64,000 bases of DNA from an uncultured delta proteobacterium (GTDB lineage Bacteria; Desulfobacterota; Binatia; Binatales; Binataceae): the NCBI GenBank assembly GCA_963794325.1, contig CAWCDG010000004.1, positions 992,001-1,056,000 on the forward strand. The letters run 5' to 3'. The notes under the pieces were generated by a model. The model made no database searches. It had not been told where the DNA came from and saw only the letters and a program-made list of their open reading frames with translations. Below are positions 10,576-19,746 of the stretch, piece by piece. Position numbers and translations under genes: made by a program. The first letter of the stretch is position 1, and every line of letters starts with the position of its first letter.

Positions 10576-11178
10576 ATGAGACGCACGGCATATCTCGTAA
10601 GCTTCGTGCTGGTGTTCTGCGCCGCATCCGCGCATGCGCAGGTGCCGGTCAGTCCGTTGATCGTGTCGCAGACCAGCGTGATACGGTTCACGCCGGCCGT
10701 ACCGAGCGGCGACGTGCGCGAAGGTTCGTGCTGGACGGAATCGATCGCCGTCGGCCGAAGTGGCGCGTGGCGATGCACCGTGGGCAACAGCATCAGCGAT
10801 CCATGTTTCACGATTTCCGCAAATCATAACGAACTCGTGTGCGATGCCAATCCCGCGCTGAAAAGGGACGGCTTCGTTTTGAAGCTGATGAAGCCGCTGC
10901 CCAAATCCTCGCGGCCAGATCAGAAAACGGAGCCGTGGGTTTTTCGGCTCGCTGACAATTCGATTTGCCAAGCGATGACCGGCACGCTGTCGCCGGTGAA
11001 CGGCGCGCCGGCGCGATGGTCATGCGCGATTCACATTCGCGATCAGGTCAGGCCGTCGGGATTGGTGACGAAACTTACGCCAGGAAAAATCTGGATGGCC
11101 GACAAATTTCCGGAAAGCGCGCGCGGCCAGAACGGGATCGAACCAATGCAGGTGCCGGTGAAGATGCTCTGGGAATGA
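10576..11178 (+). CDS. Hypothetical secreted Cys-containing protein
   Basis: ATG 10576, signal peptide ending ASAHA, several Cys/Trp (GSCWTES, AWRCTVGNSISDPCF). Confidence 0.65.
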   Translation: MRRTAYLVSFVLVFCAASAHAQVPVSPLIVSQTSVIRFTPAVPSGDVREGSCWTESIAVGRSGAWRCTVGNSISDPCFTISANHNELVCDANPALKRDGFVLKLMKPLPKSSRPDQKTEPWVFRLADNSICQAMTGTLSPVNGAPARWSCAIHIRDQVRPSGLVTKLTPGKIWMADKFPESARGQNGIEPMQVPVKMLWE

Positions 11179-11183
11179 GCGCG

Positions 11184-12713
11184 CTACTGCTTGCGCATCG
11201 CGCGCAATTGGCGGTGGGTTAGCATCCAGCGCAGCTGGCCACCGCCGCGCTCGAAGCGGGGGGGCAAGTCGATCGCGATACATCCACCGGTCTTCAATTT
11301 CAGATGAACCACATCGCTGGCGCCGGTCAGCAGAATCGACCCGACCGCGCTGAGTTGCGGCTCGTGCCCGACGATCATCACGTCCTCATGCTTTGAAAAT
11401 GCACGCAACGCATTCACCGCGTCGGTCGCCGCCACGCCGGTCGCGAGCGCGGGCAAAACCTGCGGCGGCGGATTGTTCTCGTAAGCAGCTGACACTATCT
11501 CGGCGGTTTCGGCTGCACGCGCGAGTGGACTCGTCAGGATCACATTGAACTTGAGACCCATCGCGCGCAGTCCCGCCGCCGCGTTGCGCATTTTTTCCTT
11601 CGATCGTTCAGTCAGTTTGCGCGCACCGTCGTCGCCGCTCGAGGCGGCCTCTTCGGCGGTCGCGTGACGCAGAATATAGAGCATCATGGGATTGATTCCG
11701 TGGCAGAATGCGAGTTCATCGAGTTGTGATTGGAGCGCGGTGGATCTTCTAAGTCTGGGTGCATGACTGGCGATCTGACTAATCGGATCTTTTTCGCCCG
11801 CATCTGCAACCGCCGAGGACAAACTCACCGGCTTGAGCGCCAATCTCCCGGCGCGGCGAATCTCCTCGAGCGTGTCATGCATCGCGTCGGATCGCTCGAA
11901 CTGCCGCCACGCCCGCATGCATTGCCGACGCAATTTATTTTCGCGACTGCCAAGCGACTGAATCAAGGCGCCGGCCGCGAGCATTGTTTTCGGCGGCGCC
12001 GCCGACGTTTCCGCATACGACAGCAGCCAGGCGGACGCGACCGCGATGTCGTGATAACTGCCGAGCAGTTCCTGCAGCTCTTCCAGCCGCCTTACGGTTT
12101 TCCGGTGGCGCTTGGCGCCCAGCGGCGCAATCATCTCGAGCTCGTAGCGCAGCCGCTTGATGCGAACGCGCAGCTTATGGAAAACCGGCACTGGAGCGTC
12201 GGTGGCGAGCTTTCCACCAAGGCGAGCTGCACCGCGCGAAGCCGGGCGGACCAACTGTGCGGCGACGATGCCCAGCCTGCGATCGGCGCCAACCTTTTTA
12301 ATCGCCGGATGCGCCAGCTTGGCCAGCAGATTTCGGTAACGCTTCGATTCGAACAGCTCGTGCAGCCTGGCTTGCTCGGACTTTCGCCCTTGTTCGAGCG
12401 CGGCCAGCATCGGCGCGAGCGCGTCTTTCAGACCGGGATCGATTTTAGTGGCGCGAGCGGCTATCAAGGCGGCGGTCACGTCGCATTCCCGGGCGCCGCC
12501 GGCCAGACTGCCAATCCAGGGAAGGTCGCGCCGAAAGATTTTGAGCTGCGCGGCGTAGATGACGCTCGAGAACAATTCGATTGTCGCGCGGAGCCGACGC
12601 GTCGCCACACGCAGTTGATGCAGCGGCTCCGCTTCGCCGAACTCCGCGGAACTCTGATGCCGCACCAACGATTCAACGCCGGACGCGATCGCTTTGCGCG
12701 CCGCGTCCGCCAC
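11184..12713 (-). CDS. CHAD domain protein continuous with a SixA-like phosphohistidine phosphatase (SixA part 11184-11687)
   Basis: Two CHAD repeats LHQLRVATRRLR and FHKLRVRIKRLRY...LQELLGSYHD; C-terminal LYILRHA, LTSPLARAAETA, VGHEP. Confidence 0.8.
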   Translation of the reverse strand: MADAARKAIASGVESLVRHQSSAEFGEAEPLHQLRVATRRLRATIELFSSVIYAAQLKIFRRDLPWIGSLAGGARECDVTAALIAARATKIDPGLKDALAPMLAALEQGRKSEQARLHELFESKRYRNLLAKLAHPAIKKVGADRRLGIVAAQLVRPASRGAARLGGKLATDAPVPVFHKLRVRIKRLRYELEMIAPLGAKRHRKTVRRLEELQELLGSYHDIAVASAWLLSYAETSAAPPKTMLAAGALIQSLGSRENKLRRQCMRAWRQFERSDAMHDTLEEIRRAGRLALKPVSLSSAVADAGEKDPISQIASHAPRLRRSTALQSQLDELAFCHGINPMMLYILRHATAEEAASSGDDGARKLTERSKEKMRNAAAGLRAMGLKFNVILTSPLARAAETAEIVSAAYENNPPPQVLPALATGVAATDAVNALRAFSKHEDVMIVGHEPQLSAVGSILLTGASDVVHLKLKTGGCIAIDLPPRFERGGGQLRWMLTHRQLRAMRKQ

Positions 12714-12780
12714 CGTTTCCCCGGGGAAAGCGTTACCCTGCGCGGCGGCGCATTGAAGCGCGACTCATCTACCACCGTTG

Positions 12781-13539
12781 CTATTCCTTGCGTGTCGATG
12801 TCCCGTTCTCGGTGGAATCGGGATGAGGCTTGCCATTCGAGCGCGACAAATATTCGGCGATGTGCTTTCTGAGTTCGCCCTGGACTTCCTCGACCGGCAA
12901 GCGCGCATCGACCGACACGAACCCGAACTCGCTGGACAAGCGCCGGTACTCGTCGATCAGGCGGGTCTGGTAGCGCTCGAACGAATCGAACAGGTCGGTG
13001 CCGAGCGCAAGATGCATCCCGGATTCCCAGTAGTCCATCCCCTTGCCCATGATGACGCGCGGAATAAGCGATTCGACGTCGATGTCGAGGTAGAGGACGA
13101 GATCAGGGACGAGCGCCATGCCGAAAACCTCGCGCGTCCAATCAGGGTCGGCCCCCATCACCGAGTTGCGGGCGAACGCCGTGTACATGTAACGATCGGC
13201 GATCACGATGAAGCCCGCCTGCAGCGCCGGCAGGATTTCATGCTCGAGGCGATCGGCAAAATCCGCGGCATAGAGCAGCGAGAACGTCGTGACGGTGAGC
13301 TGATGGCCGGCCTTGGCCTCGTTGATGGTCTCGGAGAGCAGCGGCGATCGCGTCCATCCGGTGTTGCTGACGGCGTAGCCTTCCAGCTCGAGCCATGGGC
13401 GGAGCAACTCGATTTGTGCGGAGCGGCCGACGCCGTCGGTGCCTTCAATCGCGATCAAATGGCCGGGCAGCCGCTTTTTCGCGACGTACGGCAGGCCGTG
13501 CCCGTACCAGGTTTTAGCGTGGCTGCGATGTGGCGCCAT
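12781..13539 (-). CDS. Thymidylate-kinase-like P-loop protein, degenerate Walker A
   Basis: IAIEGTDGVGRSAQ, ADRYMYTAFAR, PDLVLYLD. Confidence 0.85.
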   Translation of the reverse strand: MAPHRSHAKTWYGHGLPYVAKKRLPGHLIAIEGTDGVGRSAQIELLRPWLELEGYAVSNTGWTRSPLLSETINEAKAGHQLTVTTFSLLYAADFADRLEHEILPALQAGFIVIADRYMYTAFARNSVMGADPDWTREVFGMALVPDLVLYLDIDVESLIPRVIMGKGMDYWESGMHLALGTDLFDSFERYQTRLIDEYRRLSSEFGFVSVDARLPVEEVQGELRKHIAEYLSRSNGKPHPDSTENGTSTRKE

Positions 13540-14380
13540 TTTTTCCGGTAGCTCGCTTGAGGTCGTAGTCACGCAGAATTTCCTGGACCATGGTACGCAC
13601 GACCTTCTGTTGATTGGGAATTTCGGCGGCCGCGTCGATCGGACGCATCCCGAACTCCTCCGTCAGTTGATCGTAAATTTCCAGCACGCGGCTCTGGAAC
13701 ATCCGGAAACTCTCCACCGGATCCGCGGAGAGGCCTACGTCCATTCCAGCCTCGTGGTACTTGAGCTTGGCGCGTCCCGACAGCAGTCGCTCGAGCGAAA
13801 TATCAATCGGCACGCGGAAGTAGAGCGTCAAGTCGGGCCGCAACGCCGGACTATAAACCGCACGGACCCAATCGGGATGCACACCGCGCGCGACGTCGCG
13901 CGCAAACGCGGTGTACACGTAGCGATCGGCGAGCACAATCATTCCAGCCTTCAGCGGCGGCAGTATCTGGTAGGTCAATCGATCGGCGAAATCGACCGCA
14001 TGCAGCAACGAGAACGTCGTTGGCGTCAGCAGATTCTTTTTCTTGCCGCGTTGCATCGAACGCCGCACCAGCCGCGACGAATTCCACTCCGTGAAATGGA
14101 CCGGGTAGCCGCGCGCCCGCAGCCATCGTTCGAGCAGCAGCAGTTGCGTCGATTTGCCCGAGCCGTCGATCCCCTCGACGCAGATCAAGCGCCCCTTATA
14201 AGGATGCGGAGTTTCGAGCAGAGTCTTGGGCGCGGTGCGGGTTGAGTACTTGGGCGGCGTCGAGGATGGAGTAACGTGGCCGTTAGACGAAGCAACGGCG
14301 GCGGGCAGCTCTAACGCTGCAGCACCACCTGGCGATCCAGCAGTCTCGATAACAGGTCCGTTCTTCTCTCGCATGTCCAC
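13514..14380 (-). CDS. Thymidylate-kinase-like P-loop kinase
   Basis: ICVEGIDGSGKSTQ, ADRYVYTAFAR, PDLTLYF; start uncertain because it overlaps the ppx end. Confidence 0.85.
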   Translation of the reverse strand: MDMREKNGPVIETAGSPGGAAALELPAAVASSNGHVTPSSTPPKYSTRTAPKTLLETPHPYKGRLICVEGIDGSGKSTQLLLLERWLRARGYPVHFTEWNSSRLVRRSMQRGKKKNLLTPTTFSLLHAVDFADRLTYQILPPLKAGMIVLADRYVYTAFARDVARGVHPDWVRAVYSPALRPDLTLYFRVPIDISLERLLSGRAKLKYHEAGMDVGLSADPVESFRMFQSRVLEIYDQLTEEFGMRPIDAAAEIPNQQKVVRTMVQEILRDYDLKRATGKNGATSQPR

Positions 14381-15825
14381 AGTTCGAGGTCGGCCTTCTC
14401 GCGCTTCGAATCGACTCCGACGATCACACGTCCCGGTGAATACCTGACCTCGATATTCTTAACCACACCGAAGTGGCTTCGATCCAGCGCGTCGGCGACA
14501 CGCAAAATCGCGGCGAGGCCCCTGATCACACGGCGCTTGGCGGGGCTGAGCGATTTCAAATCCGGCGAATCGAGTTTCGGGGCCTGCTTGCGATGCCCGC
14601 GAGCCGCCTGCGCGATGACCTCGATTTCGTCAGTGTCGAAGCCGAACAGCTCCGCATTCTTAATCAGGTAGTAAGAATGGCGATTGTGCCGGTCATGATC
14701 AATCGCGTGGCCTATATCATGCAATAAAGCCCCGAATTCAAGCAGTTCTCGCGAGGACTTGGGCAAGCCCAAAACCGGCGCCGTCGCATCGAACAGCTTC
14801 AGCGCGAGCTTCGCCACCTGTTTGCCATGCTCGTTGCTTCCGGTGAATCGAGTCGCCAAGGCGTTGACCGAACGGCGCCGCGCGTCAGCCGCCGATCGCG
14901 AATCAATCTTGCGCGCGAGCCCGAGCAGGACGCCCTCGCGCAGCGCCCAGGTGCATGCGACCAGATCCGGCGCACCGGATTTCTTCAGGATAAAATTCAC
15001 GAGCGTCGCCGCCGCGGGCATCAGGTCGACCCGCTTGGCGTCCATCCCGGGGAGATCGACGCGCAGCGCCGCGTTGGCTTCGACCAGGTCGCGCGTGAGA
15101 TCTGAAATTTCGCCGGCCGACGCGCTCGCGCCATGTAGCCGGCCAAGCTCCTCGCCGCGCGACGATCGCGCCATCGCGACCAGCGTGTTGATCGTCCCCG
15201 ACGTTCCGATCGCGCGGACCACACCCGCGCGCTTCACCTTGCGCATCAACGGGCCAATCACGCGCTCGAGATGCGCCTCGAGCTTGCTCAACTGCGTGCG
15301 CGTCGGCGGATCGTCGAGGAGGAATCTCTCCGCCAGCCGCGCCGCGCCGAGCTTCACGCTCCGCATCCACAGCGGTTTGCCGTCGCGCACCAGCACCAGC
15401 TCGACGCTGCCACCGCCGACATCAACCAGCAGATGAGGCCCGCCGTCGAGACCGAGGGCATGACGCGCCGCCTGGAAAATCAGCCGCGCCTCGTCGAGGC
15501 CGGAGATCACTTCGACCGTCAGGCCCGTCTCGCGCTTGATGCGCCGGATGAACTCCGTGCGATTGCGCGCCTCGCGCACCGCGCTGGTCGCGACCGCGCG
15601 CAACTTCTCGACCCTGCGCACTCGCAGCAGTTTTTTGAAATTGACCAGCGCGCGCACCGCGAGGTCCATCGACTCCGCCGTCAGGCGTCCCGTAGTGAAC
15701 GAGCGCCGCCCCAGCCGCACCATCTCTTTGACCCGATCGACGACCTCGAGATGGCCCTCTCGGCTCACGTCCGCCACGATCATATGCACGGAGTTGGATC
15801 CGACATCGATCGCTCCCAGCCGCAT
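14311..15825 (-). CDS. ppx: Ppx/GppA exopolyphosphatase with C-terminal HD domain
   Basis: AIDVGSNSVH, VATSAVREA, DVGGGSVE, ALREG, ALLHDIG motifs; ATG at 15825. Confidence 0.92.
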   Translation of the reverse strand: MRLGAIDVGSNSVHMIVADVSREGHLEVVDRVKEMVRLGRRSFTTGRLTAESMDLAVRALVNFKKLLRVRRVEKLRAVATSAVREARNRTEFIRRIKRETGLTVEVISGLDEARLIFQAARHALGLDGGPHLLVDVGGGSVELVLVRDGKPLWMRSVKLGAARLAERFLLDDPPTRTQLSKLEAHLERVIGPLMRKVKRAGVVRAIGTSGTINTLVAMARSSRGEELGRLHGASASAGEISDLTRDLVEANAALRVDLPGMDAKRVDLMPAAATLVNFILKKSGAPDLVACTWALREGVLLGLARKIDSRSAADARRRSVNALATRFTGSNEHGKQVAKLALKLFDATAPVLGLPKSSRELLEFGALLHDIGHAIDHDRHNRHSYYLIKNAELFGFDTDEIEVIAQAARGHRKQAPKLDSPDLKSLSPAKRRVIRGLAAILRVADALDRSHFGVVKNIEVRYSPGRVIVGVDSKREKADLELWTCERRTDLLSRLLDRQVVLQR

Positions 15826-16037
15826 GGATAGAAGGTAGCCTTCCACGCGCTCGCTGTCATCCACGCTGCCCGAGCCCCGCACCGGCGCGCCAAAATATTC
15901 GCGCAATCATCCGGTGTTGATTAGAAGCGATGCGCGTTACGCCGCGATGAACGCCGAATGTCGAATTTGTTTTTCGCAGTATCCTCGCCGACCCTGTGGG
16001 TTTAATCTGTTGTCAGCACGCCTTACGGACGATTCTG

Positions 16038-17642
16038 TTGGCAGCCGCAGCCTCATCCACGATTGGAACCGACTTCCCCGAGTACGGATCCTCCAGCCAC
16101 AAGTGGCTGATCGCGCTGGCCGTGATGCTCGGCACGACGCTCGAAGTCCTCGACACCTCGATCGTCAACGTCGCGCTGCCGCACATGCAGGGCAGCTTTT
16201 CCGCGAGCGTCGACGAGATCGCATGGGTGCTCACCAGCTACCTCGTCGCCAACGGGATCATGATTCCCATGACGGGATGGATCTCGTCGCGCTTCGGCCG
16301 CAAGCGCTACTTCCTGATGTCGGTCGCAGTGTTCGTCGCCGCGTCGGGTCTGTGCGGCGCGGCTCAATCGCTCGATCAGATGGTCGTATTCCGATTGATA
16401 CAGGGCGCCGCCGGCGCCGCGATGGTCCCGTCGTCCCAGGCGATCCTGATGGAAACGTTCCCGCCCAACGAGCAGCAGCTCGCGATGGCGACGTGGGGGA
16501 TGGGCCTGATGGTCGCGCCGATCATGGGCCCGACGCTCGGCGGATGGATCACCGACAACTGGAACTGGCGCTGGAATTTTTTCATCAACCTGCCGATCGG
16601 CGCCGCCGCATTCCTGATGGTCTGGACTTTCGTGCACGACCCCGCATACCTGCGCACGAGGCGCGCAAAGGGCGGCAAGACCGACTACACCGGCATCATC
16701 CTGCTCGTCGTCGGCCTCGGCCTGGCGCAGCTCGTTCTCGATCGCGGCCAGCGCGCCGACTGGTTCAGCTCGCCGTGGGTCGTCTGGTGCACAATTTTAG
16801 CCGCGATCTGCATCATCGGACTGACCATCAACGAATTGCGCACGCCGGAACCGATTCTCGATCTTTCAATCCTCGGCATTCCGGTCTTCTCGATGTCCGT
16901 GATGCTGATGGTCGCGATGAGTTTCGCGCTGTTCGGCACCGGACTGTTGAATCCGATTTTTCTGCAGGAGCTGATGGGCTACAGCGCGTGGAAAGCGGGT
17001 CTGGTGCTCGCGCCACGAGGACTCGGCACGATGGCTGCGATGCTGATCGTCGGGCAACTCGCGCGTTACCGCTACGACACGCGTCCGCTGATCGGCGTCG
17101 GCTTCGTCATCATGGCAATCGCGCTGTGGCAGATGGCGGGATGGAACACCGACGTCAGCACCTGGACGGTCACGTGGCCCAGCCTCGTCATGGGAGTCGG
17201 GATGGGTATGATATTCCCGACGCTGTCCGCCATCACGCTTTCATGCGTCAGCCGCGAGCGCGTCGGCTACGCCGCGAGCCTCTACAACATGATGCGCAAC
17301 ACCGGCGCGGCGATCGGCATCTCGTACATGACGACCGTGCTCGTCGATCACGAGCAGACGCATCAGTCGTACCTGGTCGCACATTTCACCGTCTTCGATG
17401 CGTGGAAAATGAGCAACGCGGCGCGCCTCACTCCCGGCGCGCGCAGCTTTGACTATATGCCGCAGATGCTCACTGGCCAGAAGCAGGGACTAGGAATGGT
17501 GTACGGCATGATTCAGCGCCAGGCGATGATGCTGTCCTTCAACGACATCTACCGCACACTGGCTATTGTAATGATGATACTGATTCCAACCTTCTTACTA
17601 TTGCGTCGCGGGCAACCCGTCAGTGGCATGGCCGCTCACTAG
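16038..17642 (+). CDS. DHA2 family (EmrB/QacA) MFS efflux transporter
   Basis: LDTSIVNVALPHM, WVLTSYLVAN, GPTLGGWITDNWNWRWNFFINLPIG; start uncertain (TTG 16038). Confidence 0.92.
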   Translation: MAAAASSTIGTDFPEYGSSSHKWLIALAVMLGTTLEVLDTSIVNVALPHMQGSFSASVDEIAWVLTSYLVANGIMIPMTGWISSRFGRKRYFLMSVAVFVAASGLCGAAQSLDQMVVFRLIQGAAGAAMVPSSQAILMETFPPNEQQLAMATWGMGLMVAPIMGPTLGGWITDNWNWRWNFFINLPIGAAAFLMVWTFVHDPAYLRTRRAKGGKTDYTGIILLVVGLGLAQLVLDRGQRADWFSSPWVVWCTILAAICIIGLTINELRTPEPILDLSILGIPVFSMSVMLMVAMSFALFGTGLLNPIFLQELMGYSAWKAGLVLAPRGLGTMAAMLIVGQLARYRYDTRPLIGVGFVIMAIALWQMAGWNTDVSTWTVTWPSLVMGVGMGMIFPTLSAITLSCVSRERVGYAASLYNMMRNTGAAIGISYMTTVLVDHEQTHQSYLVAHFTVFDAWKMSNAARLTPGARSFDYMPQMLTGQKQGLGMVYGMIQRQAMMLSFNDIYRTLAIVMMILIPTFLLLRRGQPVSGMAAH

Positions 17643-18170
17643 CTATTGCATTTCCGCGAGCGCGCGCTCGAAAACCTCCAACGACTGGCGATCGAACAGC
17701 ACGAACTCCACCCGCTCCAGCGTCGTCGGGCTGCCGAGATGCGCGCGCACTTCCTCGAGCATCACCTCGGCGCATCGCTCAATTGGAAAACCCGCGATGC
17801 CCGTGCCGATCGCGGGAAATGCGATCGTCTTGAGTGAGTTCTCATTGGCGCGCATCAGCGAGTTGCGAGTCGCCGCGCGCAGATTCGCCTCCGACGTGGG
17901 TTCTCCCAGACGCATGCTCGCCGCATGAATCACATGGCGCGCCCGCAACTTTCCCGCGCCGGTGATCGCCGCTTCGCCCAGCGCAATCGTGCCGATCTTG
18001 TCGCACTCCTGCTGAATGCGCGGCCCACCCTTGACCCGAATCGCGCCCGCAACGCCGCCGCCCAGCATCAGATCGTTGTTCGCAGCATTCACGATCGCAT
18101 CCACATCCGCTTCCGTCAGGTCGCCCTGCCGAAACCCGATCTTCGCTCGCCAATCTTTGTTCATCGCCAT
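17643..18170 (-). CDS. Macro domain protein (O-acetyl-ADP-ribose deacetylase, YmdB-like)
   Basis: GDLT..DVDAIVNAANNDLMLGGGVAGAI, IAFPAIGTGIAGFP. Confidence 0.92.
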   Translation of the reverse strand: MAMNKDWRAKIGFRQGDLTEADVDAIVNAANNDLMLGGGVAGAIRVKGGPRIQQECDKIGTIALGEAAITGAGKLRARHVIHAASMRLGEPTSEANLRAATRNSLMRANENSLKTIAFPAIGTGIAGFPIERCAEVMLEEVRAHLGSPTTLERVEFVLFDRQSLEVFERALAEMQ

Positions 18171-18188
18171 GTTATTATCACGCCAACC

Positions 18189-19746
18189 GTGCGCCCGAGG
18201 AAAACAAACGTTCTGCGGCTCGCCGCAGCACTCTTGACGCTCGCTGGATGCAGCCATTATCGCGTCGAGAGTCCGCCGGGGACGATTCAGGTCGATATCG
18301 AAACCTCGCCGACCTCGACCGACCCGCGCTTTGGCACCGACGCAATGTCGTCACGGATCAACGAACTCATTTTCGATTCCCTCGCCAAGGCCGATCGCGA
18401 CGGCAATTTCGCCGGCCGTCTTGCCGAGAGCATCGAGCGTCCGTCGCCAACCGAGATCGTGTTTCACCTCAGGCACGGCGTGCGCTTCAGCGACGGTCGC
18501 GAACTTACCGCGCGCGACGTGGTATTCACCTACAATTCGATCATCGCCCCGGAATCGATGTCGCCAAAACGCGCCAGCCTCGAGGAGTTGAAATCAATCG
18601 AAGCGGTCGACGATTACACAGTCGTCATGACCATTGCGCATCAGTACTCGCCGGCGCTCGAGATGGCGACTGAAGGCATCGTGCCCGCCGGCACTACGCT
18701 GCCCGCGCAAGGAAGCGGCGCCGCGCCGGTGGGTAGTGGACCCTTTAAGATGGTCGCCTACTCGCGCGATGAATTCTTGCGGCTTGAAAGCAATACGTAC
18801 TATGCGCGTCAGCCCGGCACCGCTCAGTCGATTTTTTTCAAGATCGTGCCGGACCCGACAGTACGCGCGCTCGAACTCGCAGAAGGCGTTTGCGACTTCT
18901 CGCCGAACAATATTCAGCTCGACGTGCTGCCGTGGCTCGCCGCACACCAGTCGCTCGAGATCAGCAACACCCCGGGCACCACCTATCGCTACCTGTCTTT
19001 CAATTTTCGCAATCCACAGCTGCGCGATATTCGCGTGCGCCGCGCCATCGCCTATGCAATCGATCGCGACACAATAGTCAGTACGGTTTTGCGAGGTACT
19101 GGCCGAATAGCCACTGGCATGCTCTCGCCCGAAAACTGGGCATACGACGGTAACGTGACTAGCTATTCGTACAATCCAGAAAAAGCGCGTCAGCTTCTCG
19201 ATCAGGCTGGCTACCCCGCGGGCAAAAATGGTCTGCGCGGGCTTCGCTTCGAATTCAAAACTACTTCCGAAGGCGCGCGCATCGGCGAAATCTTTCAGGC
19301 GATGCTTCGGCGGGTGGGTATTGAACTGAGTATTCGTTCCCTCGAATTCGCCGCCTATTACGCCGACATCCAGACCGGCAACTTCGACCTGACCTCGTTG
19401 CAGTGGATCGGAATCAACGATCCGAATCAATACTACATGGTGTTCGATTCGAAGAAGACGCCGCCCCATGGCGAGAATCGCGGCTACTATTCAAATCCTG
19501 AAATGGACCGGCTGGTCGAAGCAGGAAAAAGCTTTCGTCGATCGCGACGCACGGAAACAAATCTACGCGCAGGTTCAGCAACTCGCTGCCGACGATCTGC
19601 CCTACGTGTCGATGTGGTGGGTCGACAACGTTGCCGTGATGAATCGACGACTGGCGGGCTTCGAGCCCTACCCGAACGGCAGCTTCCGCTCACTCGCGAC
19701 GCTCACCCTCGTCGGCCCCGGCGGCGCCGGAGAGCCGTCTGAATGA
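18189..19746 (+). pseudogene. Peptide/nickel ABC transporter substrate-binding lipoprotein (family 5), +1 frameshift at about 19526-19530
   Basis: Lipobox LAGC; FHLRHGVRFSDGRELTARDV; GSGPF; C-terminus RKQIYAQVQQLAADDLPY lies in another frame after an A5 run; probably a sequencing indel. Confidence 0.8.

Follow-up and report, generated by a model that had tools for sequence, protein, structure and literature searches.

A Probable Two-Subunit PPK3 Polyphosphate Kinase in a Polyphosphate Operon of the Bacterium Candidatus Binatus

Results

Organization of the Polyphosphate Gene Cluster

A gene cluster related to polyphosphate (polyP) is located on the minus strand (11184–15906) of a 64,000-nt stretch of DNA, hereafter the window, which represents C4:992001–1056000 of genome G000 of Candidatus Binatus (contig CAWCDG010000004.1; 4.45 Mb in 10 contigs, 85% complete). 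Based on the list of open reading frames (ORFs), the cluster consists of four tightly packed ORFs, and these encode an exopolyphosphatase with Ppx-GppA and HD domains (ppx), two paralogous proteins of the thymidylate kinase (Tmk) fold, here named A and B, and a CHAD domain together with a SixA-type phosphatase (Table 1). An earlier note on this DNA had described the same tight minus-strand set, and all five elements were found where it had placed them. The two Tmk-like proteins, which are likely the subunits of a polyP kinase of the PPK3 family, are the main subject of this study.

Table 1. Features of the polyP gene cluster in the window.
Feature	Position	Strand	Description
ppx	14311–15906	−	Ppx/GppA exopolyphosphatase with C-terminal HD domain III
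Tmk-like A	13514–14380	−	288 aa; PF02223 71.2 bits; predicted catalytic PPK3 subunit (cPPK3 type)
Tmk-like B	12781–13572	−	263 aa; PF02223 70.4 bits; predicted partner/regulatory PPK3 subunit
CHAD + SixA ORF	11184–12713	−	509 aa, single reading frame
CHAD part	11688–12713	−	polyP-binding module, residues 8–230, and variable linker; PF05235 140.3 bits
SixA-type histidine phosphatase part	11184–11687	−	residues 343–497; TIGR00249 77.5 bits (cut-off 74.5); PF00300 36.6 bits

The ppx product matched the profiles PF02541 (Ppx-GppA, 213.3 bits), PF21447 (Ppx-GppA_III, 107.1 bits) and PF01966 (HD, 44.8 bits), and it scored 272.5 bits with TIGR03706, under the cut-off of 307. Its true start is likely the in-frame ATG at residue 28, position 15825, where the earlier note had set the border of the cluster. 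If the listed starts are taken, the reading frame of A shares 70 nt with that of ppx and 59 nt with that of B, and a gap of 67 nt separates B from CHAD. The first ∼60 residues of A form a low-complexity extension, the coding region of which overlaps the 3′ end of ppx (window 14200–14380). This extension was matched in close relatives only, remoter homologs beginning near residue 46–60, so that the start codon of A is in doubt. The start of B probably lies ∼11 codons downstream of the listed one, given that most of its close homologs have 252 amino acid residues.

Comparison of A and B with dTMP Kinase

Against the dTMP-kinase equivalog TIGR00041 of NCBIfam, A scored 76.8 bits and B 82.8 bits, both just under the cut-off of 83.25. 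The earlier note had claimed that both proteins lack the canonical Tmk motifs, and the comparison with seven canonical Tmks of the class, which carry TxEPGG and DRFsDST.AYQ, bore this out. The corresponding motifs are GIDGSGKS, TEWNSS and DRYVYTAFARD in A, and GTDGVGRS, TGWTRS and DRYMYTAFARN in B, so that TxEPGG and S..AYQ, which we take to be the dTMP-binding motifs, are replaced in both proteins. The P-loop is intact in A; in B its glycines are kept and the lysine (Lys76 in A) is replaced by arginine (Arg50). The DRX arginine is Arg153 in A and Arg127 in B. A lid insert of ∼14 residues is present in both A and B and absent from the canonical enzymes. The canonical Tmk (TIGR00041/PF02223) thus shares with A and B the P-loop kinase fold, the position of Walker A and the DRX motif, but differs from them by its TxEPGG and S..AYQ motifs, the missing lid insert, a separate clade in the tree and scores at the equivalog level.

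The separate canonical tmk near holB, for which the earlier note had proposed to look, was found at C4:1879362–1879943 (PF02223 170.2 bits; TIGR00041 184.2 bits). It directly adjoins a holB-like gene, the best match of which was the DNA polymerase III delta′ subunit (162.9 bits, under the domain cut-off of 180.6). When A and B were searched at E ≤ 0.01, neither matched the PPK2 profile PF03976; the matches obtained were to PF02223 and, weakly, AAA_22 only.

Relationship to the PPK3 Family

The published precedent is the operon saci_2017–2021 of Sulfolobus acidocaldarius, which, according to Hofmann et al. (JBC 2026, PMC12995831), comprises SixA, ppx, two Tmk-like genes and CHAD. There, Saci_2019 and Saci_2020 form SaPPK3, a heteromeric α2β2 polyP kinase, in which Saci_2019 is the catalytic subunit (cPPK3) and Saci_2020 (rPPK3) is inactive alone and boosts the activity about tenfold; neither protein has dTMP kinase activity, and the reaction is reversible and strongly favors making ATP from ADP and polyP (PMC12995831). 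The same source states that the basic cleft residues of cPPK3 are conserved and those of rPPK3 are not, that the DRX arginine is replaced in rPPK3, a loss used to explain its inactivity, and that STK_15430 (PDB 2plr/5h70), deposited as a "probable thymidylate kinase", is a cPPK3 homolog (PMC12995831).

When all PDB chains were searched, A matched STK_15430 with 196.7 bits (E 6e-57) and B matched it with 149.6 bits (E 1e-42), versus 54.7 and 51.8 bits, respectively, for the best canonical Tmk. STK_15430, an archaeal protein of 213 amino acid residues from Sulfurisphaera tokodaii (PDB 2plr, 4nzy, 4rzx, 5h70), is thus closer to A than to B, although it is without the N-terminal extension of A. 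Residues 62–269 of A align with it and have in common GIDGSGKS, TEWNSS, the KKK patch, DRYxYTAxARD and the lid insert.

A maximum-likelihood tree (LG+G4) was calculated for 69 rows chosen from 99, Saci_2019 and Saci_2020 not being among them. As the earlier note had proposed, phylogeny was used to set the pair against Tmk, and the seven canonical Tmks were split from the 62 PPK3-type rows with a support of 100/100. Within the PPK3-type rows, A was placed in a clade of 24 A-type proteins with the Walker-A lysine (98/95), and B in a clade of 17 proteins with the Walker-A arginine (93/96). The B-type rows, the rows in which the DRX arginine is lost, P0287 and P0290 came together at 96/89, with one inner node at only 76/41. 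In the 99-row quick tree, for which 15 fragmentary rows had been dropped, the base of the PPK3 clade was not resolved and P0322 and P0342 stood apart from the B clade. Given the inner node of 76/41, no claim is made on one versus two origins of the partner lineage.

The Binatus locus resembles SaPPK3 in that two adjacent Tmk-fold paralogs stand in one operon with ppx, SixA and CHAD, in that the residues of the dTMP site are not conserved, and apparently also in that one subunit is rich in conserved basic residues and the other is not, the heteromer being predicted here. It differs in its bacterial host, in the presence of PPK1 and two PPK2 proteins in the same genome, and in the partner B, which keeps the DRX arginine and has a Walker-A Lys→Arg replacement instead. 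It also differs in the gene order (ppx-A-B-CHAD-SixA, with CHAD and SixA read as one ORF) and in the ∼60-residue N-terminal extension of A. The string "Binat" occurred 0 times in the examined part of the genome table of PMC12995831. Judged by title, no work on PPK3 was among the listed literature on Binatota and polyphosphate.

Conserved Linkage and Distribution of the A-B Pair

A pattern scan of one genome per species matched at least 595 stretches, at least 580 of which were confirmed, and the best 80 were kept as related loci; these are the closest relatives and are not independent of one another. B directly followed A in 79 of the 80 loci, the exception (L094) ending 2 bases past A. On the same strand, ppx was observed in 68 loci, SixA in 61 and CHAD in 52, and all five elements were present in 46. 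Among the 63 loci with at least 3 kb of upstream and 3.5 kb of downstream sequence, 57 contained at least one of ppx, SixA and CHAD. The linkage to ppx and CHAD, non-conservation of which the earlier note had named as grounds for giving up its proposal, is thus conserved, and so is that to SixA. The 80 loci include records from Planctomycetota, Bacteroidota/Chitinophagaceae and Ignavibacteriaceae with the order SixA-A-B-ppx, and the closest homologs, by their public names, belong to Candidatus Binatus and Binataceae.

Among the 24 other genomes of the genus, the A-B pair was found in 22 (A at E ≤ 1e-150), or in 21 of 22 without the unpublished G019 and G024. The two exceptions were G010, with a match at the canonical level only, and G019, with no match. 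In an even draw of 301 genomes of the GTDB phylum, a PPK3-level match was found in 10, including G000, and in each of these two matches were adjacent. The distribution of PPK3 is patchy, as was also reported in PMC12995831, which speaks of "a few taxonomically scattered bacteria". A representative library of 1.84 billion proteins contained 327 clusters (50% identity) that matched A at E ≤ 1e-30.

Predicted Catalytic and Partner Features of A and B

The two proteins were compared in 77 A and 66 B orthologs from the 80 loci, together with the pair of the window itself. The Walker A sequence GIDGSGKS was present in 77 of the 80 extracted A sequences. In B, arginine took the place of the Walker-A lysine (GxDGxGRS) in all 65 orthologs in which the motif was found, 12 of 77 extracts having given no match. 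In P-loop enzymes, such a replacement usually abolishes phosphoryl transfer, nucleotide binding still being allowed.

In the ortholog alignment, 14 columns were basic in at least 80% of A and in less than 30% of B, and six columns showed the reverse. The A-type columns include R106, R111, K114, K115, K144, R165 and the lid residues K205 and K207, and B lacks the KKK patch and the lid lysines among these 14 positions. B is itself strongly conserved, with 42 invariant columns among 30 diverse rows, and its form with the Walker-A arginine and an intact DRX motif is conserved across loci of Binatia, Planctomycetota and Bacteroidota. Judged from these sequence features, A would be the catalytic subunit and B its partner.

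Three further proteins of the PPK3 clade, P0322, P0342 and P0327, have an intact Walker-A lysine and have lost the DRX arginine (NKY, NKY and EQY, respectively); the named relatives of P0322 are Candidatus Margulisbacteria and Obscuribacterales. The partner subunit can also be degraded by a second route, the loss of the DRX arginine, which occurs in bacteria.

Predicted Contact between A and B and Natural Fusions

A 1:1 complex was modeled from residues 55–288 of A (52-row alignment) and residues 20–250 of B (30-row alignment). The model scored 0.72, versus 0.00 for the best of three controls, and it passed a mark that 116 of 157 solved complexes and 2 of 215 mismatched pairs reached. The runs agreed in at least 97% of the contacts, with a partner pLDDT of at least 82, and the predicted interface places residues 104–136 and 165–178 of A against residues 78–111 and 145–152 of B.

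In P0067 (on a 329-kb contig), P0069, P0085, P0104 and P0274, one polypeptide chain contains an A-type domain and, after it, a B-type domain. Their A part carries GIDGSGK and [TS]EWNSS and their B part GTDGVGR, with TGWTRS in four of them and not in P0274, which is cut. The order of the domains is the order of the genes, and these natural fusions support a contact between A and B. The class II two-domain PPK2 proteins (e.g., PA3455 of P. aeruginosa), which belong to a different family, combine an active kinase module with an inactive paralogous module that drives oligomerization, according to PMC12995831, and their layout is mirrored by the single-chain A-B fusions.

Other fusions were also observed. 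P0243 and P0315 are further single chains of two Tmk-like domains. In P0251, P0264, P0265 and P0309, a PPK3-type kinase is joined to HD domain III of Ppx/GppA, the catalytic Ppx-GppA domain being absent, which suggests a direct functional tie of PPK3 to the Ppx HD module. Ten longer proteins of 770–2575 amino acid residues (P0298, P0307, P0318, P0321, P0329, P0386, P0301, P0304, P0323 and P0382) join a PPK3-like domain to other modules; some contain an MFS transporter with APH/DUF2252 domains, P0301 has an N-terminal SPX domain, P0304, P0323 and P0382 have "InPase" pyrophosphatase domains, and P0304 also has ART-PolyVal.

Other Polyphosphate Kinases of the Genome

No ppk1 or ppk2 was found within the 64-kb window, as the earlier note had also stated. 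Elsewhere in the genome, PPK1 was found at C4:653775 (181.5 bits) and PPK2 at C4:1369643 (333.6 bits) and C5:40884 (254.4 bits). Among the 24 genus genomes, PPK1 was present in 23 and PPK2 in 21 (21 and 19 of 22 without the two unpublished ones). The "missing PPK" logic therefore does not apply, PPK3 fills no empty slot, and the claim of the earlier note that the pair occupies the place of the usual ppk had to be abandoned.

In G001, G002, G004, G005, G008, G009, G012, G014 and others, PPK1 and the PPK3 cluster share a contig and are 11–50 kb apart (in G002, for example, at 196047 versus 207828), and in G000 the distance is ∼350 kb. A PPK2 gene stands immediately upstream of the PPK3 A-B pair in a genome from a different family of the class (G026:C128:75249–78068).

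Possible Traces of Expression and Operon Boundaries

Four soil metatranscriptome runs from four studies contained 0.05–0.06 of the sampled words, and contigs at a likeness of at least 90% were considered. Contigs of the RNA libraries, 90–99% alike, matched B, A and ppx at its 3′ end, with no coverage of CHAD/SixA or most of ppx, from which nothing is concluded. Some ran over the B/A junction (e.g., 13194–13627 and 13204–13798) and others over the A/ppx junction (e.g., 14315–14706 and 14193–14633). Because they differ from the window by 1–10%, they come from relatives. They hint weakly that the genes are expressed and co-transcribed in the group, contigs of RNA libraries being no proof of transcription. 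A scan for sigma-70 promoters in 10900–16300 gave 0 sites (shuffles averaged 1.1), and a scan for terminators gave five (shuffle average 4.7); there was thus no signal for operon boundaries.

The CHAD-SixA Junction

The SixA part begins with MMLYILRHA and has the motifs RHA and GHEP. In a crude motif test, CHAD and SixA stood in one stop-to-stop frame in the window and in only one of the 80 related loci, L029, the matches of which are themselves broken into pieces; in the other loci where both were found, they were two genes in different frames. When four close loci were aligned, an ATGA was conserved at the junction, which would overlap the stop of CHAD with the start of SixA. The window differs from these four loci by length changes in the poorly conserved upstream linker, including a gap of 4 nt. 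The earlier note had counted CHAD and SixA as separate genes. Both domains are present, and they are separate in nearly all relatives, but in the window they are read as the single ORF. A true CHAD-SixA fusion was considered as a firm claim and dropped, with one frame seen only in the window and the fragmentary L029 and the difference being 4 nt in a poorly conserved linker. The single ORF (junction near 11690–11790) may equally well be a real fusion or the product of an indel in a long-read assembly.

Neighboring Genes

The flanking genes have no link to polyP and encode an OPT transporter, a weak GH99-like protein, an MFS transporter, a Macro-domain protein and an ABC peptide system. The stand-alone Macro-domain protein (17643–18257, minus strand, 121.7 bits) has the MFS transporter on one side and the ABC peptide-binding protein on the other.

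Discussion

Taken on their sequences, A and B are very likely the two subunits of a PPK3 polyP kinase in a bacterial polyP operon of Candidatus Binatus. Their homology and family placement, the motif pattern, the conserved linkage and the presence of a canonical tmk at another site of the genome are all direct observations. The suggestion of the earlier note that the pair is not a dTMP kinase and may be a heteromeric polyP kinase or a polyP-dependent nucleotide kinase agrees well with the scores against STK_15430 and with the homologous Saci_2019/Saci_2020 pair, as described in PMC12995831.

The enzymatic activity and its direction, how A and B divide the labor, and what CHAD and SixA do are inferred as follows. 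Catalysis would be carried out by A, and B, a paralog with impaired catalysis, would bind A and activate or organize it. Together they would move phosphate reversibly between polyP and ADP/ATP, probably mainly from polyP and ADP to ATP, as the Sulfolobus enzyme does. Ppx would trim polyP, CHAD would tether the system to polyP granules, and SixA would have some phosphatase role. Since PPK1, the usual polyP synthase, and two PPK2 proteins are present, PPK3 would be an added route and not the sole one; most economically, polyP would be made by PPK1, and PPK3 would use the stored polyP to regenerate ATP.

Several points weigh against this interpretation. The function of the bacterial members is an analogy drawn, through homology, from one archaeal enzyme. 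PPK1 and PPK2 are present in this genome and in most of the genus, unlike in most published PPK3 carriers, which, according to PMC12995831, are without both. The DRX arginine, replaced in rPPK3, is kept in B in 67 of 67 aligned rows; for this reason B may differ from Saci_2020, and it may not be inactive. B is only a candidate ortholog of rPPK3. The mismatch at DRX bears on the equation of B with Saci_2020, not on the membership of the pair in the family. The predicted interface consists of the helices of the usual Tmk dimer, and the pass of the A-B model may therefore be a memory of solved Tmk homodimers. Finally, in 6 of the 63 fully flanked loci the A-B pair stands, at the thresholds used, without ppx, CHAD or SixA within ∼6 kb.

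These last loci, along with the PF02223 scores of A and B, which are both above the cut-off, and the public annotations, which name both proteins dTMP kinase, are what could be expected if the pair had nothing to do with polyP and were kinases of nucleotide monophosphates (paralogous dTMP/dUMP or modified-nucleotide kinases) that merely neighbor polyP genes. This is highly improbable, because the canonical dTMP-site motifs are absent, both proteins fall under the equivalog cut-off and the real tmk stands beside the holB-like gene, while the linkage to ppx, SixA and CHAD holds across loci of Binatia, Planctomycetota and Bacteroidota and fusions to the HD domain III of Ppx exist. According to PMC12995831, the Sulfolobus homologs have no dTMP kinase activity either. 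Both proteins might instead be active kinases, B being a second catalytic subunit with a substrate of its own (another NDP or NMP, or the polyP end) and not a dead regulatory partner. The DRX arginine kept in every row, the 42 invariant columns and the six conserved basic columns peculiar to B would fit such a role, but the Walker-A arginine in all 65 orthologs with the motif and in all B-type rows compared, and the absence from B of 14 basic positions that A conserves, the KKK patch and the lid lysines among them, make it rather improbable. Unlikely, though less so, is that PPK3 is here mainly a polyP synthase (from ATP to polyP) that duplicates PPK1 rather than a regenerator of ATP; SaPPK3 is reversible (PMC12995831) and the granule-binding CHAD is also in the operon, but PPK1, the usual synthase, is present in the genome. 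A two-subunit PPK3 that draws on polyP stays the preferred interpretation.

The same work is reportedly also out as a 2024 bioRxiv preprint (10.1101/2024.08.28.610084). With the family already published (preprint 2024, JBC 2026), the module is not new, although the earlier note had put it forward as a candidate new one. The family is known, and the locus differs from published PPK3 by its host in Binatia, by the coexistence with PPK1 and PPK2, and by a partner with the Walker-A arginine and an intact DRX motif. More tentatively, and rather less likely than not, this form of B could represent a class of bacterial PPK3 partners with a mechanism unlike that of the archaeal rPPK3, pseudokinases that sense nucleotides or polyP and gate the catalytic subunit of a specialized third polyP arm beside PPK1 and PPK2. 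As part of the same tentative proposal, PPK3 would be far commoner in bacteria than "a few", given the confirmed stretches and the 327 clusters reported above.

A real and recently demonstrated enzyme family was recovered here by reasoning from raw sequence, and PPK3 is extended from thermoacidophilic and ammonia-oxidizing archaea to Binatia, which are abundant uncultured soil bacteria. The coexistence of PPK1, PPK2 and PPK3 raises the question of why three families of polyP kinases are kept together. The mesophilic two-subunit enzyme and the natural single-chain fusions are candidates for polyP-driven regeneration of ATP, and the different lesion of the partner, with the Walker-A lysine changed to arginine and DRX kept, offers a handle on how the second subunit activates the first. 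If B does form a distinct partner class, PPK3 would be a specialized third polyP arm in abundant uncultured soil bacteria and not a replacement for a missing PPK.

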